64,000 nt of DNA, from positions 64,142 to 128,141 of the forward strand of contig CAYFMS010000002.1 of the NCBI GenBank assembly GCA_964344415.1, given 5' to 3'. The notes beneath the pieces are model-generated. The model worked only from the letters and a program-made list of their open reading frames with translations. It had not been told where the DNA came from and ran no database searches. Each line of letters begins with the position of its first letter. Within the stretch, counting starts at the first letter, position 1. Source of the stretch: an uncultured Gammaproteobacteria bacterium. Lineage in GTDB: Bacteria; Patescibacteriota; Patescibacteriia; UBA9934. This document shows, piece after piece, positions 3,480-60,485 of the stretch. Made by a program: the position numbers and the translations under genes.

Positions 3480-4052
3480 ATGTCATATAAGCATCTTGAA
3501 AAGCTATTGCCGCATGATTATCTTGTTAGGCCTTTTCTTTTCTTTATTCCAAAATGGGTCAGGCCGAATCATCTTACTGTACTTCGCTTTCTTTTGACAC
3601 CAGTTTGTATTTGGCTATTTGTAATAGGGAATTACAAAGTGGGAATTCCGGTTTTTATTTTTGCATCGCTGACAGATTTGCTCGATGGTTCACTCGCGCG
3701 CATACGCAAACAGGTAACGGCTTGGGGGGTTTTCTATGATCCGGTCGCGGATAAATTACTTATCGCATCGGTTCTGATTGTGGCAGCTATTCAATATTTG
3801 AATATTTGGGTATTACTCGGGCTTATTGTCATGGAGCTTTCAATTTTGATTGGGGGACTTATGCGGAATAAAAAAGAGTTGCCAGCAGCGAATTTATGGG
3901 GTAAATGGAAGATGGTAATGGAATTCGTTGCATTAACCATACTGCTTATTGCAATCGCGACTCAGTTCTTAGCTCTTATTCCTGTCGCGACGGCGCTATT
4001 TATCATCGCCATTCTTCTTGGTGTGATTTCTCTGTTAACATATAGCTTGTGA
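3480..4052 (+). CDS. CDP-alcohol phosphatidyltransferase family protein
   Basis: Motif D-x2-D-G-x2-A-R-x8-G-x3-D-x3-D is present ('DLLDGSLARIRKQVTAWGVFYDPVADKLL'). The protein is multi-TM. The ORF track starts at TTG 3444; the ATG at 3480 is preferred. Confidence 0.75.
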   Translation: MSYKHLEKLLPHDYLVRPFLFFIPKWVRPNHLTVLRFLLTPVCIWLFVIGNYKVGIPVFIFASLTDLLDGSLARIRKQVTAWGVFYDPVADKLLIASVLIVAAIQYLNIWVLLGLIVMELSILIGGLMRNKKELPAANLWGKWKMVMEFVALTILLIAIATQFLALIPVATALFIIAILLGVISLLTYSL

Positions 4053-5632
4053 AAAAGCTTTCAATTTTTCTTCTGATCATCGGGGTGCTCATTTATTTTA
4101 TCTCCACATTGTGGCTTTCTTTTGATGTTCCACTTTTTAATTCTCCCGATGAGAATGCAGCATTTTTTGCAGCGTATTCATTTGCAGAAGGTGATTTGCC
4201 GAGGGTGAAGGAAATGGCGAATTGGGCAGTTGGTGGTGCTATTCATCCACGCAGTATGATTGCGGTAGAGGATTATATTGTGCCGGGGAGTTTCCTTGGT
4301 TTACCGATTTATTTTGGGGCGCTTGGGTCTATATTCGGCGCTTGGGTTCTGAAAATATTGACGCCTCTTCTCTTTATTCTATCCGGTTTAGCATTTTATA
4401 AACTTGTAAGAGTATTCGCCGGATCGAAAGAAATAGCGCTCTATTCGACGATTTTCTATATATGCCATCCGGCCATGTGGTATTACGCTGGCAGGACAAT
4501 GATGCATAATGTTCCATTTATTTCTTTTGCCGTTTTCAGTGCATTCTTTCTCTATGTGAAGCCTATATCGCGCAGATGGATGAATTGGCTTGCGGCCGGG
4601 TGCTTTTTAGGAATATCAATCAGCATGCGCAGTTCTGAAATTATCTGGCTCATTCCTCTCTTCGCCGCTTTTGTGGGTATGCTGATGTGGAGAGATGGAT
4701 GGAGGCATGCGCCAATATTTCTGTTCGGAATTATTCTCGCAATCATCCCAATACTCCTTCACAATCAATCATTGTACGGATCGGTACTTGAAACGGGCTA
4801 TACAATTGACTTCAATTATCCAAGGTTGAACCTTGATGTGGATAACCCCGACTCAAGGTTAAACCTTGATGTGGATAAATCGAGCTTTTTGCCATTTGGA
4901 TTCCATGAAAAGGCAATTCTGCGTCATATTTGGCAATATGGATTTCTGCTTTATCCTTGGATGACCGTCTTTGGTGCAGCTGGGATAGTGATTGCCCTAT
5001 TTAGGCCCAAGAATAAAAAATGGTTTTACTTAGCAATTGCGACACTTTTCGTATCAGCTTGGCTCGCCATTCTCTACGGTAGCTGGGTTATACATGACAA
5101 TCCGGATCCAAATGCGATTACAATAGGAAATTCATACGCGAGATATTGGATTCCAATTTTTACACTTCTTGCGCCATTTGCTGGACTCGCCATTTCCATC
5201 ATGCTCAACCATCTAAAAAAATGGAAGTTATGGGCCGCGTCTGCATGTATGGCATGTATCATTCTTTTATCCAGCTTTGTTGTTTTTGGCGGGGAGGATG
5301 GATTCATTCAAACACGCCAGCGGCTTCTTGCTGAGCAGGAAATGATTGATTCAATTCTTGAAAAAACAGAATCTGATAGCATTATTATCACGGATTTTTC
5401 AGATAAACATCTTTTCCCAGCAAGGCGCATCGTTCATCCACTTCGCGACGAGCATGTTTATGAGAATCTAGGTAATCTATTTAATCAAGCGCCACTTTAT
5501 TATATTGGAATCACATTCCCTGATAGCGATCTAGATTTTTTGAGAGAGAATAGACTGACGCCTCATGGAATAGATATTGAACTTATTGAGCAGTATCATC
5601 ATCAATCTTTATATAAATTCATTGAACAATGA
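4049..5632 (+). CDS. GT-C-fold membrane glycosyltransferase (PMT/ArnT-like, GT39/GT83-type)
   Basis: 527 aa, multi-TM, with a 'SPDENA' acidic motif in the first extracytoplasmic loop after TM1 and a C-terminal soluble domain. Contains the in-frame 33-bp tandem repeat listed below. Confidence 0.6.
   Translation: MKKLSIFLLIIGVLIYFISTLWLSFDVPLFNSPDENAAFFAAYSFAEGDLPRVKEMANWAVGGAIHPRSMIAVEDYIVPGSFLGLPIYFGALGSIFGAWVLKILTPLLFILSGLAFYKLVRVFAGSKEIALYSTIFYICHPAMWYYAGRTMMHNVPFISFAVFSAFFLYVKPISRRWMNWLAAGCFLGISISMRSSEIIWLIPLFAAFVGMLMWRDGWRHAPIFLFGIILAIIPILLHNQSLYGSVLETGYTIDFNYPRLNLDVDNPDSRLNLDVDKSSFLPFGFHEKAILRHIWQYGFLLYPWMTVFGAAGIVIALFRPKNKKWFYLAIATLFVSAWLAILYGSWVIHDNPDPNAITIGNSYARYWIPIFTLLAPFAGLAISIMLNHLKKWKLWAASACMACIILLSSFVVFGGEDGFIQTRQRLLAEQEMIDSILEKTESDSIIITDFSDKHLFPARRIVHPLRDEHVYENLGNLFNQAPLYYIGITFPDSDLDFLRENRLTPHGIDIELIEQYHHQSLYKFIEQ
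4823..4886 (+). repeat. in-frame tandem repeat (about 1.8 copies of a 33-bp unit) inside the GT-C gene, encoding 'RLNLDVDNPDS RLNLDVDKSS'
   Basis: 'aaggttgaaccttgatgtggataaccccgactc' is followed by 'aaggttaaaccttgatgtggataaa'. Each unit carries a 13-bp odd-centred palindrome AAGGTT(G/A)AACCTT. Confidence 0.85.
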
Positions 5633-9582: not shown

Positions 9583-9620
9583 TTAAGTCCGACTTAAAAC
9601 AGCAGATTAAAGTCGGACTT
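9583..9620. promoter_or_regulatory. pair of palindromes TTAAGTCCGACTTAA and AAGTCGGACTT, centres 25 bp apart, just upstream of the -35
   Basis: 15-bp perfect odd-centred palindrome plus an 11-bp palindrome; the position suggests an operator or activator site. Confidence 0.5.
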
Positions 9621-9631
9621 AATTTGTGGAT

Positions 9632-9658
9632 AAAAAAACCGCGCTTTGTTCAGCGCGG
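9632..9658 (-). terminator. rho-independent terminator for the 9685..10269 gene
   Basis: On the minus strand: CCGCGCT-GAACAA-AGCGCGG hairpin followed by T7. Confidence 0.55.
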
Positions 9659-11634: not shown

Positions 11635-11701
11635 ATTGCTGTTATGATACCAAGGTTTGATGATGTTGTGGATAAGCGGCACTGTGATAGAATGGGCGGG
11701 T

Positions 11702-43394: not shown

Positions 43395-43444
43395 CCCGTG
43401 AACCCACGAGATCTGATCTACTTATCCACAGACAACGTCCGACT

Positions 43445-44563
43445 TTGAATTATATGCTAACAATAGGGATCGATGTACATCCACTTCTGCGCAAGCAATA
43501 TACCGGCACAGAACGGTACCTTTTCGAGTTGATTAATGCGATGATGGCTGATAGTTATCCACAGTCAACGTCCGACGTTGAATTTGTTTTATATGCATCG
43601 AGTCCGGTGGATTCACTTAGGGAATTGCCAAAAAACTGGAGTTGGGAAATTGTAAAATGGAAAGGTCCTGGATACACTCATCTCGGACTTTCAAGGCATT
43701 TTATGCAAAATCCGCCGGATATTCTTTTTGTGCCGGCTCATGAAATCCCACTATTTACCGGAAAAGTTAAAATCGTGACGACAATTCATGACCTGGCTTT
43801 TTATCATATTCCGCAGGCATACTCTTGGTTCAATGTGCTGCGGCAAAAATGGTCTCTTCATCGTAGTGTGCGAAAAGCAGATCGTATTATCGCGATTTCT
43901 CAAAAAACAAAGAATGACATCCTAAAACATACAAAATGTGATGACTACAAAATAGATATTGTACATTTGGGAAACTCAATTCAAAAACCTACCGATAATT
44001 CTATTCAAAATACATTGAACCATTATCATCTCGATGAGCAGGGCTATTTTTTCTATATTGGAAGACTTGAAGCAAAGAAGAATATCGCTATGCTTCTGGA
44101 TGCATTTGAAATATATGCGAAGAATGGCGGGGAAAAGGATTTAGTGCTGGCTGGAAAATGGGGGTATGGATCCGAGAATATAAAACAAAAAATTGAAGTG
44201 TCTAAATTCAAGAATAAAATACGAGTTCTGGGATTTATTCCGCAAGAAGAATTATCGGCGCTCTATGCTGGATCGGAAGCATTTGTATTTCCATCTCTTT
44301 ATGAGGGATTTGGCATGCCAATTCTTGAGGCACTCGCATGCGGGACGAATGTTTTAGCATCGGATATAGCTATTCACAGAGAAATCGGTGGCGATATAAT
44401 ACAATATGCAAAGGTGGATGATGCGGGCGAATGGGCCGTGAAGATGGCTGCAATGAAAAGGGACGTATCAAATACAGAGACGGCGGGTCATTTGAAGAAA
44501 TTTACATGGGATGCGGCTGCGAATAAGACGATGAGCATTCTTCGAGAAACATGGACGAATTAA
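43445..44563 (+). CDS. glycosyltransferase family 1 (GT4)
   Basis: 'EGFGMPILEALACGTNVLASD'. The real start is probably the ATG at 43454. Confidence 0.8.
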   Translation: MNYMLTIGIDVHPLLRKQYTGTERYLFELINAMMADSYPQSTSDVEFVLYASSPVDSLRELPKNWSWEIVKWKGPGYTHLGLSRHFMQNPPDILFVPAHEIPLFTGKVKIVTTIHDLAFYHIPQAYSWFNVLRQKWSLHRSVRKADRIIAISQKTKNDILKHTKCDDYKIDIVHLGNSIQKPTDNSIQNTLNHYHLDEQGYFFYIGRLEAKKNIAMLLDAFEIYAKNGGEKDLVLAGKWGYGSENIKQKIEVSKFKNKIRVLGFIPQEELSALYAGSEAFVFPSLYEGFGMPILEALACGTNVLASDIAIHREIGGDIIQYAKVDDAGEWAVKMAAMKRDVSNTETAGHLKKFTWDAAANKTMSILRETWTN

Positions 44564-45937: not shown

Positions 45938-45974
45938 TTCGCTCTCCTTGATTGAATGCGGCCTTTGGCCGCGG

Positions 45975-46016
45975 GTTGAAGTTTCATCTCAGCGCACAGA
46001 ATGCGCTAGGAGAAAC
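45975..46016. repeat. 42-bp element copy 1 ('gttgaagtttcatctcagcgcacagaatgcgctaggagaaac')
   Basis: Identical to 46721-46762. Contains the hairpin AGCGCA-cagaa-TGCGCT and, on the minus strand, 'ATGAAACTTCAAC'. Confidence 0.9.
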
Positions 46017-46067
46017 CCCGGACATGCACCATGTGATGCAGTCCGGGAAGTTCGGCATCGAAGTCGT

Positions 46068-46703
46068 CTACTTCTTTGCCTGTTCGATGCGCCGCTGTTC
46101 TTGTGAGACTGCGGCATGGATCCTGCCGTCACCCAAGGACTTGTGCACATTCTTCGCTGCCATCAGCTGTGCGAATGTGAGTCCATTGAGTCCTTTTAGA
46201 CGCGCACCCTCCAGATTTGCATCCTTCAGATTCGCACCCTCCAGATCCGCACCAAACAGATTTGCGCCCTCAAGATTTGCACCTTTCAGATTCGTACCCT
46301 CCAGAACCGCACCGTCGAGATTTGCACCCATCAGATTCGTACCCTCCAGATCCGCACCAAGCAGAAACACACCGCTCAGTTCCGTACCCGCCAGAATTGT
46401 ATACGCCAGATTTGCATCCTCCAGATTCGCACAAAGCAGAAACGCACCCTCGAGATTTGCATCCTTCAGATTCGCATCCTTCAGACGCGCAGCCATCAGA
46501 CCCGCACCCATCAGATTCGCGCCCATCAGATTTGCGCCCATCAGATTTGCGCACCTCAGATGCGCACCCTCCAGATTCGCACCCATCAGATTCGCATCCG
46601 CCAGATTGATCACTGCAGATGGGTGTTCTTCTCGCCACGCATTGAAGGATTTGACCCCTTCTTCACCTTCACGCAACATCTCCAGCAATTCTTCCTTGGT
46701 CAT
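46068..46703 (-). CDS. pentapeptide-repeat protein
   Basis: About 30 tandem A(D/N)LxG-type pentapeptides ('ANLMGANLEGAHLRCANLMGANL...'); start 'MTKEEL' with RBS GGAGGAGG; GC-rich. Confidence 0.8.
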   Translation of the reverse strand: MTKEELLEMLREGEEGVKSFNAWREEHPSAVINLADANLMGANLEGAHLRCANLMGANLMGANLMGAGLMAARLKDANLKDANLEGAFLLCANLEDANLAYTILAGTELSGVFLLGADLEGTNLMGANLDGAVLEGTNLKGANLEGANLFGADLEGANLKDANLEGARLKGLNGLTFAQLMAAKNVHKSLGDGRIHAAVSQEQRRIEQAKK

Positions 46704-46720
46704 TAAGACCTCCTCCGTAT

Positions 46721-46762
46721 GTTGAAGTTTCATCTCAGCGCACAGAATGCGCTAGGAGAAAC
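46721..46762. repeat. 42-bp element copy 2
   Basis: Identical to 45975-46016; lies immediately upstream (minus sense) of the pentapeptide-repeat gene. Confidence 0.9.
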
Positions 46763-47385
46763 TCCAATCTATAACATCATCTGAGGGTGAGCTTGTATGC
46801 TCGTATGCATACGGCTAGCAGTGACGTAGATACGTATGCCAGCAAGAATCCCTGGCATGTGCCGCCAGTCAGCCGGAGCCGAGTGATGGCACTTGGAATT
46901 CAATAAGCTTATATCACCCAAAAGCGATATATCCTCCATACCTCCCGAGAGGGCTGCATGGAAACTCTCTCCCCCAGATGATGTAATAGATCAGCTGCTT
47001 TTAGCAGACGTACAAATGTAGCAAAAAATGGGCCTTTTGTCAAGGTGTCGTGAAGATTTTTTGGCTAATATTGGGGAATTTATAAAAGTAAGTAAAGCGA
47101 GTAAAGTTAGAAAAGTGAGTAAATAGGGCAGGTAAATCCAGTTTGGGATTACCCTTGTTTGAAATCCCAGCCTACGAGCTGGGATCCACTCGACAAACAG
47201 GGGATTCTCCGCCTTCGCTCGGCAGAGCTACGTCGGGCAAGCAAGGCCGGAATGACGGAAGACAAACTCCTTAAACTCTGTAAACTCATTTAAACTCTGA
47301 GCGAGTGCGCCCTCCTAACCTCCCTAACTTTACTCGCTTTTCTAACTTTTCCACCCCCTAAACCCTATTTTGCTATAATCCTCAT
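46763..47385. repeat. 623-bp non-coding region, GC-rich then mosaic repeat modules (long imperfect inverted repeat around a nested hairpin; modules E, D and F)
   Basis: 'gtaaagcgagtaaagttagaaaag' at 47097 pairs with 'cttttctaactttactcgctt' at 47325. Nested hairpin 'cccttgtttg-aaa-tcccagc-ctacga-gctggga-...-caaacagggg' at 47150-47215. Confidence 0.7.
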
Positions 47386-49427: not shown

Positions 49428-49970
49428 ATGTCAATAGTAAATGAAGCAGGGCCACAATTTGATAAATCAATAGATCACCTCGCGCAGGAATTGCGAGGAT
49501 TGCGTACCGGAAGGGCGACTCCGACACTTGTCGAAGATCTTCAAATTGAATTATACGGTGCAATGCAGCCACTGAAGGCAGCGGCATCTATTTCAACTCC
49601 CGATGCCAGAACTATTCAGATCGAGCCATGGGATGCGAGTGCTGTTAAGGCAATTGAATCTGCCATTATGAAATCTGATATTGGAATTAATCCGAATGTT
49701 GATGGAAAGACGATTCGTTTGAACATGCCAATGATGACCGATGAAATGCGTCAAGAAATGGTAAAAAAATTAAAGGCTAAGATGGAAGATGCTCGCGTTT
49801 CAATCCGTCGTGTACGTGAGGACGTGAAGAAAAAGATTGAGGGACAAGATGGAATAGGAGATGATGATAAGCATGCTCAATTAGATGAGCTTGAAAAGAC
49901 TGTTAAGCAGTACAATGAACAAATTGATGGGTTGGGCAAAAAGAAAGAAGAAGAGATCACAACTATTTAG
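49428..49970 (+). CDS. frr: ribosome recycling factor
   Basis: 'LRTGRATPTLVEDLQIELYG' and 'AIMKSDIGINPNVDGKTIRLNMP'; 180 aa. Confidence 0.9.
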   Translation: MSIVNEAGPQFDKSIDHLAQELRGLRTGRATPTLVEDLQIELYGAMQPLKAAASISTPDARTIQIEPWDASAVKAIESAIMKSDIGINPNVDGKTIRLNMPMMTDEMRQEMVKKLKAKMEDARVSIRRVREDVKKKIEGQDGIGDDDKHAQLDELEKTVKQYNEQIDGLGKKKEEEITTI

Positions 49971-50088
49971 TCGCTTGTGAGTTAGCGATCTTTGTCCTCG
50001 GTTCTCCGGTCCTCGACACCGTACCTTTCAGTACGGCTTACTCCGGTCCTCGTACCTCGAACAAATCTCATCTAACTCACTGCGCGAC
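49970..50088. repeat. 119-bp TIR-bounded intergenic element, copy A1
   Basis: Left end 'gtcgcttgtgagttag', right end 'ctaactcactgcgcgac' (inverted), internal hairpin 'ccgtacctttcagtacgg'. It starts at the G of the frr TAG stop. Confidence 0.85.
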
Positions 50089-50285
50089 CGAGGTTCGTCA
50101 AAAACCATCCAGCATCCTGTGCGACTACGATTCTCCCATTTTGTCATCTCGAGCGAATGCGAGAGATCTCCTGCATATTGATTAGATTTCTCCATGCGGC
50201 CTTCGGCCTTAGTCGAAATGACGGATGGGAGCAATCTAACCCCTACACCCTAACCCCTACACCCTAAAACCCGTAACTACTCACT
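50089..50285. repeat. mosaic repeat modules (B, E and telomere-like 'cccctacaccctaacccctacaccctaaaaccc') running up to the glyQS start
   Basis: Shared modules with 51660-51903, 58930-59170 and 60208-60485. Confidence 0.7.
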
Positions 50286-51659
50286 ATGCCCGAAATTTCA
50301 ATGGAAAAAATCATGCGACTTTCTAAAGAACGGGGATTCATTTTCCCCGGTTCTGATATTTATGGAGGTCTTGCAAATTCATGGGATTATGGCCCGCTTG
50401 GGTCGCAAATGCGCATGAATGTAAAGAAAGATTGGTGGAAAAAAGTCGTTGAACAGCGGCGCGACATGTATGGACTCGACGGTGCGATCATGATGAATCC
50501 ACGCGTATGGGAAGCATCGGGGCATACATCATCATTTACTGATCCACTTGTCGAGGACAAGGTAACGCATAAGCGTTATCGTGCTGATCATCTCATCGAA
50601 GCAGCACTCCCAGATGTAAATGCTGATGGACTTTCTGTTGCTGAGCTCGATCGTTTGATTACAGAAAACAACATTAAAAGTCCAGATGGAAATGAATTGA
50701 CACCGGTCAAGACATTCAACTTAATGTTTGAAACAGGAATTGGAAAAACCGAGGGTGAAAAAGAGGCTGTGTATTTACGGCCTGAAACAGCGCAGGCCAT
50801 TTTTGTAAACTTCCAAAATGTGTTGAATGCGTCACGTGCACGGCTTCCATTTGGGGTTGCTCAGATTGGAAAGGCATTCCGCAATGAAATCACGCCGGGA
50901 AACTTCACATATCGCACGCTTGAATTCGAACAAATGGAAATTGAATATTTCTGTGAGGAATCAGAGTGGGAACAACATTTTGATGCATGGCAGAAATGGA
51001 TGGCTGATTGGGGTGAGAGCATTGGAATTGATGCTTCAAAACTGCATCCGGAAGACATTGATCCAGAAAAATTGGCGCATTATTCAAAACGCACCGTTGA
51101 CTTTGAATTTGAATATCCATTTGGAAAAAAGGAATTATGGGGTCTTGCATATCGTACGGATCATGATTTGAAAAATCATATGGAGGCGAGCGGAAAATCG
51201 CTTGAATATACAGATCCAAATGACAATGCTCGCAAAATCATTCCACATGTCATTGAACCATCGATGGGAGTTGATCGAACAATTCTTGCAATCATGCTCA
51301 GTGCATATGATGAGGAAGAAGTCGATGGCGATACTCGGGTTGTGATGCGATTTAAGCCTCATATTGCTCCATATCAAGTAGCGGTGCTTCCACTTTCAAA
51401 AAAGCCGGAATTGCAAAAGATCGCTCAGAAATTGAGTGATGATCTGTCTTCGGTGGCGAGAGTGACATATGATGAGACGCAATCCATCGGTAGGCGCTAT
51501 CGTCGTCAGGATGAAATTGGAACACCGTATTGTGTGACAATTGATTTTGACACCATCGATGACCAAGCGGTGACTATTCGTGACCGAGACACGATGCAGC
51601 AAGACCGCGTCAAAATCGATGAATTATCAGCGTATCTTGCACAGAAGTTATCAGGTTAG
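50286..51659 (+). CDS. glyQS: glycine--tRNA ligase (alpha2 dimeric GlyQS type)
   Basis: 'RGFIFPGSDIYGGLANSWDYGPLGSQMRMNVKKDWWKKVV' and class II motifs; 457 aa. Confidence 0.9.
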   Translation: MPEISMEKIMRLSKERGFIFPGSDIYGGLANSWDYGPLGSQMRMNVKKDWWKKVVEQRRDMYGLDGAIMMNPRVWEASGHTSSFTDPLVEDKVTHKRYRADHLIEAALPDVNADGLSVAELDRLITENNIKSPDGNELTPVKTFNLMFETGIGKTEGEKEAVYLRPETAQAIFVNFQNVLNASRARLPFGVAQIGKAFRNEITPGNFTYRTLEFEQMEIEYFCEESEWEQHFDAWQKWMADWGESIGIDASKLHPEDIDPEKLAHYSKRTVDFEFEYPFGKKELWGLAYRTDHDLKNHMEASGKSLEYTDPNDNARKIIPHVIEPSMGVDRTILAIMLSAYDEEEVDGDTRVVMRFKPHIAPYQVAVLPLSKKPELQKIAQKLSDDLSSVARVTYDETQSIGRRYRRQDEIGTPYCVTIDFDTIDDQAVTIRDRDTMQQDRVKIDELSAYLAQKLSG

Positions 51660-54773: not shown

Positions 54774-55060
54774 GTCGCTTGTCTGCTGGCGCACTTTGAA
54801 CTCCAATCATCGAATCTATCCTCATCGTACGTTTCAGTACGCCTGCGGTAGATTCTCGATTGTCATCCAAATTGCATCCAGCATCCTTCGCGACCTCGAC
54901 ACTGTGCCTTTCAGTTCGGCTTACTCCGGTTCCAAGTTAAGGTTGAACCTTGACTGCGACTCGGAATAGGTTCAACCTTTCTATGCTCACTGCGCGACCG
55001 AGGTTCATCCAATATCCTGCGCGACTTATCGACTACTACTCACTACTATATAAAGTGCAC
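54774..55060. repeat. composite intergenic element A4 (two degenerate TIR units plus module B and a 'aaggttgaacctt...aggttcaacctt' palindrome pair)
   Basis: Starts 2 nt after the TAA stop with 'tagtcgcttgt'. Contains 'cgtacgtttcagtacg' and 'tgcctttcagttcggcttactccgg'. Ends with 'ctcactgcgcgac'. Confidence 0.75.
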
Positions 55061-55339
55061 TCGCGAATCTGCCGCCACCTGCGAGACTGTCACACTGCAT
55101 GCGGCAGGAGCGAGGAATTGCAAAACAGCCGATAGGAATGAACAGATCAATGTATTAAGAAAAATAAAGACATTCCTACTCTCTGTTTTGCCCGAGCGAT
55201 GACGCTTTATGCATGTGACAAAGCGAGCACTGGCGGCGTTCTTTTGCTTACTTTTCTTTAAAGAAAAGTAAGAAGAAAACAAGAGATCCCTCCCGCCTTC
55301 GCTCGGAATGACGCTTGGCGATGGATACCGTGTCAAAAT

Positions 55340-56193: not shown

Positions 56194-58929
56194 ATGAGTA
56201 ATCCTACGATGAATTCCATTTTTGTGACCAATAGACATGGTCAGCGTGTTCCATTTGATCCGGCTCGTATTCGCAAGGCGCTTGAAGCGGCAGCGCGTGG
56301 TTATGAAGGGTATATTAGCCTCGACACAATCATGGAAGATTTTGACATCAATATCTATGATGGGATGTCGACAACGCAGATCAACAAAACGCTTACAATG
56401 GTGCTTGCGTCACGAATCGAACAGGTGCCTGAATATGGAAATATTGCAGCGCGCGTTATCTTGAATGATTTATCAAAAGATATCTTTGAGCGCATTAGTA
56501 GTGACCCGGATTATGAACAGCGTTATCGGGATGCATTCCGGAAGCAGCTATACCGCGCGGTAGAAGAAGAAAGACTCGACCCGCGACTTCTCATGTTTGA
56601 CATCGACCGTTTGTCGCAAGCGCTAAAACCGGAACGCGATAGTTATCTGACATATTTGAGTGTTTCAACATTGAAGGGACGGTATTTGTTGCATACGGCT
56701 GAAAAGGAAATTTTAGAGCTTCCACAATATTTTTGGATGCGTGTTGCCATGGGACTCTCTCTTGATGAGAAAGATCGGAATGAAAAAGCGATTGAGTTTT
56801 ATAATCTCATTTCAGAGCTTCGCTATGTGCCGTCTACTCCAACACTCTTACATTCTGGGACAACGCATCCGCAAATGAGCTCTTGCTACATTATGACAGT
56901 GAGTGACCGCTTGAATAATATTTTCAAGACCTTTGCTGATCAGGCTCAATTGTCAAAATGGTCTGGAGGTGTTGGTAGTGACTGGTCAAGCATTCGAGCG
57001 ACCGGCGCGCATATTCACACCATTAATACGCATAGTCAGGGCGTTATTCCATTCCTTAAGATTGTTGATTCCACAACGGCGGCAATTAATCGTAGTGGAA
57101 AGCGGCGTGGCGCAACATGCGTTTACCTTGAAGCTTGGCATCATGACATCGAAGATTTCTTAGAGCTGCGAAAGAATACGGGTGATGAACGTCGACGTAC
57201 GCATGACATCAGCACAGCGAACTGGATTCCTGACCTTTTCATGAAGCGTGTCATTGCGAATCAAGAATGGACATTATTCTCTCCAGATGAAGCGCCTGAT
57301 TTGCATGAATTGTACGGGCAAGAATTTGAAAAGCGATACGAGGAATATGAACAGAAGGCAGATCGCGGTGAAATCCGATTGTTCAAGCGCATGCCCGCAA
57401 TGGATTTATGGCGCAAAATGCTCACCATGATTTTCTCAACGGGGCATCCTTGGATCACATTCAAAGATCCTTGCAATGTGCGATCGCCTCAGGATCATGT
57501 TGGCGTTGTACGTAGTTCAAATCTCTGCACGGAAATCACATTGAATACTTCAGAAGATGAAACAGCGGTTTGTAATCTTGGTTCTGTAAATCTTTCTCGC
57601 CATGTCGTGAATGGGAAGGTTGATCGCGATATGCTGCGTCAAACGGTGCTCATTGCTATGCGAGCTCTCGATAATGTGATTGATTTGAATTTCTACCCAA
57701 CGGCGGAAGCGAAAAATTCGAATATGCGTCATCGTCCAGTCGGACTTGGAATCATGGGTGTTCAGGATGCGCTGATTAAGCTCGGTATGCACTTTGATAG
57801 CGATGTTGCTGTTCAATTCTCTGATGAGCTGCAGGAATACATTTCTTATTATGCAATTATGGGTTCATCTATGCTTGCACGTGAAAAGGGGACATATTCT
57901 AGCTATCGAGGTTCAAAGTGGGATCGGGGCATTTTCCCAGTAGACACACTTACGCTTCTTGAGCAGGAGCGAGGTGAGGAAATTCAGGTTCCAAAAACGC
58001 AGTCTCTCGATTGGTCTGAAGTTCGTGATCATGTGAAGCGTTATGGAATACGAAACTCGAATACGATGGCGATTGCTCCAACGGCGACGATTGCAAATAT
58101 TTCGGGTTGCTTCCCAACGACAGAACCGATGTACAAGAATATGTATGTAAAGTCGAATCAGGCCGGGGAGTACACGATTATCAATACCTATCTTGTCGAT
58201 GATTTACGAGCGGTGAATAAGTGGAATATCGACATTATCAATAAAATCAAAATTAATGACGGAAATGTTCAGGGTATAGCGGATATTCCGGAAGAAATTC
58301 AGCAAAAATATAAAGGAGTATTCGAAATTGATCCAATATGGGTGATTCGTCACGCTTCGCGCCGTGGAAAATGGATTGATCAGAGTCAGTCAATTAACTT
58401 GTTCTCGACGAGTACTTCAGGAAAATTTTTCAGCGAGATGTACATTAATGCATGGAAACATGGATTGAAGACGACATACTATCTGCGAACGCTTGCTGCA
58501 TCACAGGTTGATCGCGCAACAGTTGATACAACAAGTGAAGGACAGAAATCAGATGCTACTTCGCAGCAGGCTGCTCAGCAGGTCCAACCGGAAACGATTC
58601 CAGTGACACTTCCAAATGTCCAAGTCCCTGAGCCGGTTCCTGCGAGTGCCATTCCTGCCGCATCGAGTCCTGCTCCGACAGTGGCGCAGCCAACTCCCGC
58701 CGCTCCACCGGTTGCTCCTCCAGTAGCTCCGCCTTCATTTGCTGCAGCGCCTCCACTTGCAGCGCAAGCAATGCATACCGCTCCTACATCTTCATCGAGT
58801 CCAATGTCGGTGACAATGCAGGGGGCGGGTCCAGGTGCAATGCATGTCGATGAAAAGGTTGAGGTGGAAGCGGTGAGTGTGCCGAAGTTGTGCAAGATTG
58901 AAGACCCAACCTGCGAAAGCTGTCAGTAG
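56194..58929 (+). CDS. nrdA: ribonucleoside-diphosphate reductase class Ia alpha subunit, with an unusual Pro/Ala-rich C-terminal extension
   Basis: N-terminal ATP-cone, catalytic 'SSNLCTEITL'. A tail of about 110 aa ('PVPASAIPAASSPAPTVAQPTPAAPPVAPPVAPPSFAAAPPLAAQ') ends in 'CKIEDPTCESCQ'. Confidence 0.9.
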   Translation: MSNPTMNSIFVTNRHGQRVPFDPARIRKALEAAARGYEGYISLDTIMEDFDINIYDGMSTTQINKTLTMVLASRIEQVPEYGNIAARVILNDLSKDIFERISSDPDYEQRYRDAFRKQLYRAVEEERLDPRLLMFDIDRLSQALKPERDSYLTYLSVSTLKGRYLLHTAEKEILELPQYFWMRVAMGLSLDEKDRNEKAIEFYNLISELRYVPSTPTLLHSGTTHPQMSSCYIMTVSDRLNNIFKTFADQAQLSKWSGGVGSDWSSIRATGAHIHTINTHSQGVIPFLKIVDSTTAAINRSGKRRGATCVYLEAWHHDIEDFLELRKNTGDERRRTHDISTANWIPDLFMKRVIANQEWTLFSPDEAPDLHELYGQEFEKRYEEYEQKADRGEIRLFKRMPAMDLWRKMLTMIFSTGHPWITFKDPCNVRSPQDHVGVVRSSNLCTEITLNTSEDETAVCNLGSVNLSRHVVNGKVDRDMLRQTVLIAMRALDNVIDLNFYPTAEAKNSNMRHRPVGLGIMGVQDALIKLGMHFDSDVAVQFSDELQEYISYYAIMGSSMLAREKGTYSSYRGSKWDRGIFPVDTLTLLEQERGEEIQVPKTQSLDWSEVRDHVKRYGIRNSNTMAIAPTATIANISGCFPTTEPMYKNMYVKSNQAGEYTIINTYLVDDLRAVNKWNIDIINKIKINDGNVQGIADIPEEIQQKYKGVFEIDPIWVIRHASRRGKWIDQSQSINLFSTSTSGKFFSEMYINAWKHGLKTTYYLRTLAASQVDRATVDTTSEGQKSDATSQQAAQQVQPETIPVTLPNVQVPEPVPASAIPAASSPAPTVAQPTPAAPPVAPPVAPPSFAAAPPLAAQAMHTAPTSSSSPMSVTMQGAGPGAMHVDEKVEVEAVSVPKLCKIEDPTCESCQ

Positions 58930-59047
58930 TTGCTTGTGAGTTAGCGATCTTTGTCCTCAGTTCTCTGGTCCTCGACACCGTACCTTTCAGTACGGCTTAC
59001 TCCGGTCCTCGAACTTCGAACAAATCTCATCTAACTCACTGCACAAC
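58929..59047. repeat. 119-bp TIR element, copy A2
   Basis: 'gttgcttgtgagttag ... ctaactcactgcacaac'. About 90% identical to A1 and begins 0 nt after the nrdA TAG. Confidence 0.85.
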
Positions 59048-59170
59048 TAAATCTCGTCCAAATTGCATCCAGTATCCGTTGTGAATATTCGAAATCCTGA
59101 GCCTGTCGAAGGATCTAAGTGATAAGACTACACCCTATCCCCTAAACCCTACACCCTAATAACCCATGCT
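59048..59170. repeat. mosaic modules B, C and F ('ccctatcccctaaaccctacaccctaataaccc') up to the nrdB start
   Basis: Module C 'ttcgaaatcctgagcctgtcgaaggatctaag' is shared with 60333 and, inverted, with 29455. Confidence 0.7.
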
Positions 59171-60207: not shown

Positions 60208-60327
60208 GTCGCTTGTGAGTTGGCGATCTTTCGCTTCAGTTTTCCGTTGCTCATTCACCGTACGTTCCAGTACGCCTCATTCCGCTACTCAAACTTCAAC
60301 GAAATATCATCCAACTCACTGCGCGAC
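60208..60327. repeat. 120-bp TIR element, copy A3 (more diverged)
   Basis: 'gtcgcttgtgagttgg ... ccaactcactgcgcgac', internal 'ccgtacgttccagtacg'; begins 2 nt after the nrdB TAG. Confidence 0.8.
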
Positions 60328-60485
60328 CTTGATCGAAATCCTGAGCCTGTCGAAGGATCTAAGCGACTTCGCTCGGGATGACGACCTACAACCTCACACA
60401 TCTCTCCAACCTCCTAAATCTCCGTTATCTCCTTCGCGCCTAAATCCGTAACGGCAACCCTAAACCCTAATAGCTAACTGTATCT
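60328..60485. repeat. mosaic modules C, E, D and F ('caaccctaaaccctaatagc') up to the xth start
   Basis: Modules shared with 51740-51860 and 59085. Confidence 0.7.

Follow-up and report, generated by a model that had tools for sequence, protein, structure and literature searches.

Why should a gene for a membrane glycosyltransferase contain, in frame, a 33-bp repeat built around a palindrome that recurs in an intergenic region some 50 kb away? The question is raised by a 64,000-nt stretch of DNA (the window), positions 64,142 to 128,141 of contig CAYFMS010000002.1 in GenBank assembly GCA_964344415.1, labelled as an uncultured Gammaproteobacteria bacterium and placed by GTDB in the Patescibacteriota. 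The answer that we consider probable is that the repeat is a doublet of a palindromic element of the repetitive extragenic palindrome (REP) type, with core AAGGTTNAACCTT, that it belongs to a family spread through the Patescibacteria (the candidate phyla radiation, CPR), and that it sits in a disordered loop of a GT-C glycosyltransferase.

The repeat that an initial annotation of this DNA had read in the gene is real. A repeat search returns two 25-nt copies, CAAGGTTGAACCTTGATGTGGATAA and CAAGGTTAAACCTTGATGTGGATAA, identical at 96% of their positions and set at a period of 33 nt, which gives the unit a copy number of 1.76 in the gene. Each copy begins with a palindrome, and the palindromes are the inner parts of a larger fold:

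4821..4845, + strand: repeat unit 1, palindrome CAAGGTTGAACCTTG (15 nt) plus ATGTGGATAA
4854..4878, + strand: repeat unit 2, palindrome TCAAGGTTAAACCTTGA (17 nt, from 4853) plus TGTGGATAA; 24 of 25 positions identical to unit 1
4822..4834, no strand: odd-centred REP-type core palindrome AAGGTTGAACCTT
4855..4867, no strand: odd-centred REP-type core palindrome AAGGTTAAACCTT
4816..4878, no strand: imperfect hairpin of 63 nt (21 codons), outer stem TTATCC/GGATAA, in which the cores pair mutually

The only difference between the two units is a synonymous change, TTG to TTA. The doublet keeps the frame of the open reading frame (ORF) 4049-5632, where codon 259 begins at 4823; it is translated as RLNLDVDNPDSRLNLDVDKSS, that is, RLNLDVDNPDS followed by RLNLDVDKSS, with the repeat covering residues 259-279. 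As single-stranded DNA, positions 4812-4882 fold with -15.1 kcal/mol (z = -5.3; none of 200 shuffles folds as well), the outer stem joining TTATCC at 4816-4821 to GGATAA at 4873-4878, and for the extended unit of 30 nt z is -3.0. The doublet is thus a short hairpin-forming palindrome, as REPs of about 20-40 nt are. Tandem Repeats Finder, run down to a score of 30, does not list it because the repetition covers just 25 of the 33 nt. Each period ends in a spacer of 8 nt (CCCCGACT in one, ATCGAGCT in the other) mismatched at five of its eight positions, against one of 25 in the unit (p ~0.001, hypergeometric), and this clustering makes a duplication of 33 nt followed by random drift unlikely. It therefore bears on the plainest competing explanation, replication slippage, according to which an ordinary segment of the loop was duplicated in tandem while the palindrome and its intergenic match are coincidences. 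In favour of slippage, the repeat takes in 11 nt of non-palindromic flank, the direct repeat GATGTGGATAA that follows each core in the gene and that is without counterpart in the intergenic copy.

That intergenic copy lies far downstream:

54939..54979, no strand: inverted doublet of the same family, AAGGTTGAACCT ... AGGTTCAACCTT, with a 17-nt loop, inside intergenic element A4

The initial annotation had noticed the same palindrome, followed by CGACTC, in this element, and the observation holds: AAGGTTGAACCTT occupies 54939-54951, CGACTC 54957-54962 and AGGTTCAACCTT 54968-54979. The doublet folds as single-stranded DNA with -10.6 kcal/mol (z = -3.8). Allowing at most one mismatch, AAGGTTRAACCTT is present at four window sites (seven strand-wise matches), where shuffled sequence leads one to expect 0.18, and the 12 specified bases of the core occur exactly three times in 64 kb against 0.004 expected by simple arithmetic, an excess that coincidence under slippage does not account for. 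The gene and the intergenic site also have an exact match of 15 nt, which is a different matter. It is weak alone, since a match of at least 15 nt elsewhere is also obtained with 4.8% of 66-nt segments drawn at random from the window, a frequency that leaves room for slippage; as proof that the two sites are related, the match (p ~0.05) was rejected.

Further evidence comes from other genomes. A scan of one genome per bacterial and archaeal species with the pattern AGGTTRAACCTT-N10-30-AGGTTNAACCT found paired AGGTTNAACCT cores at at least 116 loci, where simple arithmetic predicts about three. Among the listed loci, some three quarters come from named CPR lineages (Taylor-, Kaiser-, Vogel-, Lipton- and Yonathbacteria, Saccharibacteria, Paceibacterota, Minisyncoccia), often with several in a genome, and the 857 kb of DNA retrieved holds 328 cores against 0.8 expected. 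The palindrome context thus has other genomic copies, on the existence of which the initial annotation had made its proposal of a mini-element depend. These copies can form hairpins: of 109 pairs, 90 have cores whose central bases complement each other (A/T or G/C), and beyond the cores the flanks are able to pair in 50-68% of 78 copies, with all pair types, a level above that of all 500 shuffles. The outer stem extends the core genome by genome, for example as TCTATCG-core-CGATAGA or CAGACCA-core-TGGTCTG. In the consensus of the 78 copies, taken with 9-nt flanks, nothing is conserved past C/AAGGTT...AACCTT/G, and a GTAG or CGTC foot tetranucleotide is not conserved in that alignment. A search of the literature, with incomplete coverage, returned no description of the palindrome, nor of REPs or their transposases in Patescibacteria or CPR.

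Two further features of the family deserve to be recorded. One subfamily of inverted doublets, found in several CPR classes, has a conserved spacer, RRATCYGMARA (as in GGATCCGAAGA), that could be a cleavage or recognition site; it is seen at loci L004, L009, L010, L019, L033, L035, L039, L041, L055, L099 and L116, and in reverse orientation at L045, L051, L054, L090, L105, L108 and L117. Some contigs with the palindrome have labels from outside the CPR, namely uncultured Gammaproteobacteria (L006, L007, L020, L063, L075) and Bathyarchaeia (L034). The transposase and repeats of L007 resemble those of L014, from Patescibacteria, and the PheT of L034 is close to that of L008; such labels may reflect mis-binning or horizontal spread.

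What could move such an element? In 15 of the 116 listed loci there is a Y1_Tnp protein of 220-245 residues (Pfam PF01797, E 4e-7), with an HUH motif (MPNHFHLL) and a tyrosine motif (YIHLNP). Its only match in NCBIfam is NF047646, the REP-associated tyrosine transposase (RAYT), at 46-48 bits in three of the four proteins tested and 25 bits in the fourth, all four scoring below the 80-bit cut-off of that model. No IS200/IS605 transposase model of NCBIfam was matched by the tested proteins at E <= 0.01, and a phmmer search of the L047 transposase against the PDB sequences likewise found nothing at E <= 0.01. In nearly every case, palindromes lie 26-100 nt upstream of the transposase gene and again at or just past its 3' end. 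The association is also found from the opposite direction, in metagenome loci picked by transposase homology alone: in 23 of the best 80 among at least 556 confirmed relatives (at least 600 matching stretches), an identical, odd, perfect palindrome of 13-39 nt stands both upstream and downstream of the gene. The commonest of these flanking cores is AGGTTNAACCT, in nine loci, followed by AGGACNGTCCT in five, AGGGTNACCCT in three and AGGCGNCGCCT in two, with four others in one locus each; the general apex AGG-NN-N-NN-CCT fits them all except the singleton AAGACNGTCTT. The core in the glycosyltransferase gene is identical to the commonest one that flanks RAYT-like genes in the phylum, a coincidence that slippage would have to leave to chance.

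The flanking palindromes of these metagenome loci (L121-L200) differ mainly at two apex positions (AGGTT-N-AACCT, AGGAC-N-GTCCT, AGGGT-N-ACCCT, AGGCG-N-CGCCT and others). To judge from the sequences, the two variable bases seem to vary with the transposase lineage, which would fit a co-evolution of transposase and target. RAYT-like genes also carry in-frame cores of their own, inside the coding sequence or at its 3' end: at L080 (positions 866, 1382 and 1407 on the transposase-oriented strand), L113, L014 and L007 (both with 'KRLNLL') and at the C-terminus in L037.

How often does the element settle within genes? In 46 of 109 pairs (about 42%) it lies wholly within a stop-free frame of at least 150 codons. 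Its hosts are housekeeping genes unrelated to one another, namely ORFs for PheT, a MurD-like ligase, the C-terminal subunit of transketolase, MetRS, IleRS, MnmA, Fmt, FtsK and a prepilin peptidase. In the four hosts that were tested, Pfam domains are found on either side of the element in the same frame, and the element stands, for example, between Transket_pyr and Transketolase_C or between the catalytic and anticodon-binding domains of MetRS. Comparison of orthologues reveals presence and absence directly. The transketolase has an insert of 20 residues in L039, of 12 in L055 and none in L117 (77-82% identity); L096 has an insert of eight residues where L078 has none (75% identity); PheT has 13 extra residues in L002 and IleRS 12 in L093, while the inserts in Fmt and MnmA are at differing sites in differing genomes. 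Overall the inserts measure 8-20 residues and orthologues at 75-77% identity lack them. Typical peptides are RLNL-x4-5-RFNL or KVEP...GSTL. The commonest reading of the first core is RLNL, in the very frame used by the gene in the window, a further agreement that slippage does not foresee. In L039 the doublet seen in the transketolase gene of L055 is accompanied by a further unit of 24 nt, its core degenerate, and this is a precedent for local, in-frame expansion. The initial annotation had likened the repeat to the palindromic elements that are inserted in frame in Rickettsia genes. The likeness stands in kind, for there is a REP-type family with a transposase and in-frame presence and absence; the identification does not, as the present elements have 13-35 nt where those of Rickettsia have 100-150 bp.

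Is the host protein one that would tolerate such an addition? The relevant features are as follows:

4049..5632, + strand: host gene, coding for a 527-residue GT-C glycosyltransferase (PMT_2/ArnT-like) in an envelope-glycan cluster, from Pfam, AlphaFold and Foldseek
4805..4888, + strand: DNA coding for residues 253-280, a hypervariable loop flanked by the conserved motifs TGYT and LPFGxHE

The protein matches Pfam PF13231 (PMT_2) with E 3.6e-9. Its AlphaFold model, made with 120 homologues, has a mean predicted local distance difference test score (pLDDT) of 93.6, and the best Foldseek matches of this model are ArnT (5ezm, E 2.5e-6, TM 0.56), ALG9, STT3/PglB and DPY19. In the 120 homologues the SPDE motif has S32, P33 and D34 invariant and E35 nearly so. 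Taken together, these data agree with a predicted GT-C fold whose first external loop carries an acidic motif. Around the gene are others of the GT2, GT4, CDP-alcohol phosphatidyltransferase, RmlC-like and RmlD-like (dTDP-sugar) families. The source genome is a metagenome assembly from the Patescibacteria; the nearest homologue is just 48% identical, and the named relatives belong to Candidatus Uhrbacteria or to the "Patescibacteria group". The loop itself varies from 11 to 65 residues in the 120 homologues (median 29), with 28 in the host protein. It is the only place where pLDDT falls below 50 (residues 269-274 and 276-278; blocks within 261-280 average 50-52), so that the doublet, in its stop-free RLNL frame, lies in the single low-scoring loop of the protein, just as the genic copies elsewhere lie in loops or linkers. 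The positive clusters RPKNKK (319-324) and HLKKWK (388-393) are taken as cytoplasmic turns, and the C-terminal domain of GT-C enzymes is usually external; the loop is therefore probably outside the cell. Neither the REP-type peptide nor the duplicated segment is present in the loop of any of 119 homologues. The initial annotation had made the sharing of the duplicated segment by distant orthologues a ground for refutation, and no such sharing is seen in these homologues. Its insert of about 22 residues brings no extra length, the loop being no longer than in homologues.

The same loops also offer something in favour of slippage. Seven of the 120 have internal repeats of their own against 1.5 expected, among them P0081 (NGELRT twice, period 11 residues), P0065 (TNDG three times) and P0094 (VEPA twice), and the loop is therefore, as far as these alignments tell, a site that tolerates small in-frame duplications and would gain them repeatedly. 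Set against the excess of cores in the window, the identity with the transposase-flanking core, the clustered mismatches and the shared frame, slippage of an ordinary segment remains, in our opinion, unlikely. A related view, which takes up the slipped-strand hotspot of the initial annotation, is that of a contingency locus, where slipped-strand changes in the number of units (one, two or three) would vary an exposed loop to the advantage of the cell. The unit length is indeed a multiple of three, and the loop is disordered and probably extracytoplasmic. There are, however, just 1.76 copies; five assembled contigs encode the identical 527-residue protein, whose cluster at 90% identity, in a protein set of about 15 billion, consists of just one member sequence, and no variant in copy number was found among these contigs or in this cluster. 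The loop is, moreover, too weakly conserved in homologues to suggest a specific function. A hotspot that varies the surface loop is accordingly very hard to believe in. The effect of the element on the enzyme is most likely that of a neutral filler in a tolerant loop.

Does the locus in the window truly belong to the family? A covariance model, R1, built from 78 foreign copies, matches exactly two sites in the window, 4814-4875 (34.9 bits, E 3.4e-10) and 54931-54987 (30.2 bits, E 2e-8), the next-best match reaching 9.1 bits; Rfam finds only two tRNAs in the window. Several observations weigh against membership. The significance of the R1 matches is partly circular because the seed pattern was taken from the locus in the gene, and independent support for membership comes from the fact that the family exists and is associated with a transposase. 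The DNA of the source genome that was examined amounts to 82 kb of a 768-kb contig (the window with 10 kb before it and about 8 kb after it); it holds two family loci (four cores), where related genomes have several loci each, with no further palindrome copy in the upstream and downstream segments and no transposase gene either in the window (by tblastn) or in the whole 82 kb. The two cores in the gene are 33 nt apart from centre to centre against the usual 22-25, with G and A at their centres, which none of the 109 foreign pairs combines, and inverted REP doublets have no direct repeat such as the GATGTGGATAA that follows each core in the gene. If one unit is removed the loop falls to 17 residues, and every homologue but one has a longer loop, so that a clean insertion into a normal loop fits only with an accompanying deletion. 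Finally, translation of the element is assumed. The atypical spacing, central bases and 11-nt repeat point to a local origin of the second unit from the first, and give no sign that a standard inverted doublet went in whole. In related genomes the REP-RAYT organization is visible in the loci themselves; in the source genome the two copies would belong to the same kind of system, presumably mobilized by such a transposase.

Yet another possibility is that the repeat acts where it is as a nucleic acid, either as a hairpin in mRNA or DNA that modulates the downstream genes of the operon, or as a pair of DnaA-box 9-mers (TGTGGATAA) that binds DnaA. The strength of the hairpin noted above is in keeping with the former, and with the latter the presence of a perfect 9-mer in each unit, seven being found in the window against 0.56 expected. 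The hairpin, however, follows automatically once a palindrome has been duplicated. The peptide signature of the element is missing from the loops of all 119 homologues, and neither a dnaA gene nor features of an origin are nearby. Three other 9-mer sites share an upstream GTCGGAC that is absent at the doublet. A role in place as a nucleic acid is hence quite improbable, and the reading as DnaA boxes of a replication origin was dropped, with no dnaA gene at 10-12 kb and a different upstream motif at those three sites. As an observation in its own right, the 9-mer (TTATCCACA/TGTGGATAA) is present at 9608-9633, 43405-43430 and 43538-43563, and also at 11667 and 30224, among other sites; at three sites GTCGGAC(G/T)T precedes it by 4-5 nt, which suggests a bipartite regulatory site. 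An attC-like reading of GTTRRRY/RYYYAAC was rejected as well: in integron attC sites the order of the half-sites is the reverse.

Returning to a REP-type element as the source of the repeat, the following scenario may be proposed. A transposase would act on single-stranded DNA hairpins and disperse copies. Those that reach coding DNA would survive only when their length is a multiple of three, when they offer a stop-free frame, and when they meet a tolerant loop or linker; the frame AGG TTN AAC CTT, read as R-L/F-N-L, would be such a stop-free one. In the present gene the element would supply 11-21 filler residues (RLNLDVD...) to the disordered, hypervariable and probably extracytoplasmic loop of the GT-C enzyme. 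The second unit would most likely be of local origin, through duplication or array formation of core and flank together, not through a second independent insertion, because 11 nt of the repeat have no equivalent in the intergenic copy.

The rest of the window holds other repeats that may be recorded here. Four related intergenic elements make up an A family, at 49970-50286, 54774-55100, 58929-59170 and 60208-60485, each directly behind the stop codon of a gene (frr, a TPR gene, nrdA and nrdB). The hairpin-forming blocks GTCGCTTGTGAGTTAGCGAT and CACCGTACCTTTCAGTACGGCT are common to them, and CTAACCC(C)TACACC repeats close two of them (50236-50268 and 59128-59159). A4 has a partial internal duplication of about 79 nt. 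The palindrome was considered as part of the consensus of this family and rejected, as it is in A4 alone, with a TCGAACCTCGAACA-like sequence at the corresponding position of the other three. Elsewhere, a 15-nt unit, CGCACCCTCCAGATT, is repeated 27 times in tandem (about 70% matches) over 46203-46607 within an ORF at 45952-46725, which would encode a protein of five-residue repeats; at the two ends of that ORF are the copies of a 45-nt direct repeat (45975-46019 and 46721-46765, 98% identical, 746 nt apart). Further intergenic direct repeats are at 9189-9243/9584-9638 (55 nt, 75% identity) and 30438-30477/30737-30776 (40 nt, 90% identity).

A broader reading would make the doublet in the GT-C gene one case of a REP-RAYT-like system that is phylum-wide in Patescibacteria, with the conserved apex AGG-NN-N-NN-CCT (mostly AAGGTTNAACCTT), and that colonizes coding genes in frame at high frequency. 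Its segments of 8-20 residues (RLNL...RFNL, KVEP...GSTL) would be found in aminoacyl-tRNA synthetases, transketolase, Fmt, MnmA, FtsK and the transposase itself, at loops and at linkers between domains. We see the chances for and against this wider proposal as evenly balanced. If it is true, a RAYT-like system that regularly resides within essential genes, in the very compact genomes of CPR, would account for part of the unusual short insertions in CPR proteins, and we would have a second, independent and much smaller case of what is known from Rickettsia, this time with a candidate transposase. The insertions would also be natural presence/absence markers for the population genetics of CPR, and a recognition code would become testable, because the two variable apex bases seem to differ between transposase lineages. 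For the glycosyltransferase gene the consequence is probably small, its loop tolerating almost any sequence.

How does all this compare with known systems? Contingency repeats also place in-frame units in genes for envelope proteins; here, by contrast, there are fewer than two copies, no variant in copy number was found in the contigs and the cluster cited above, and the unit comes from a dispersed family. With IS200/IS605 elements and their miniature derivatives the Patescibacteria loci share a Y1 HUH transposase, hairpins at both ends of the gene and, by implication, a single-stranded DNA mechanism; unlike these elements, which have distinct left and right ends, they have the same perfect palindrome on both sides, and only the RAYT model was matched.

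REP-RAYT systems have been described mainly in Proteobacteria, and REPs are extragenic by definition. The resemblance to REPs and REPINs is extensive: short hairpin palindromes in many copies, as singlets and inverted doublets, and a Y1/HUH transposase gene with palindromes on both sides, its sole NCBIfam match being RAYT, a layout known from Proteobacteria (PMC3337134; PMC2817692). The differences are no less clear. Where classical REPs are extragenic, about 42% of the Patescibacteria pairs are genic; of the two loci in the window, the doublet at the glycosyltransferase lies inside ORF 4049-5632 and the copy at 54939-54979 is intergenic. The apex AGG-NN-N-NN-CCT is conserved across lineages while the outer stem is lineage-specific, and there is no conserved foot of the GTAG or CGTC type, the two REP classes named in PMC3733652. 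The transposases, finally, score below the NCBIfam cut-off (46-48 against 80 bits) and are longer (220-245 residues).

In behaviour there is also a resemblance to the Rickettsia palindromic elements (RPEs), for which no transposase is known. RPEs, about 100-150 bp long, are palindromic selfish elements that enter unrelated housekeeping genes in frame, add a peptide at tolerant sites and leave the genes intact (review PMC10969869), and the Patescibacteria elements do likewise. They do so, however, in a different phylum and with 13-63 nt, that is, 4-21 residues (25-63 nt for the element in the window, in a Patescibacteria host), and they come with a candidate transposase of their own.

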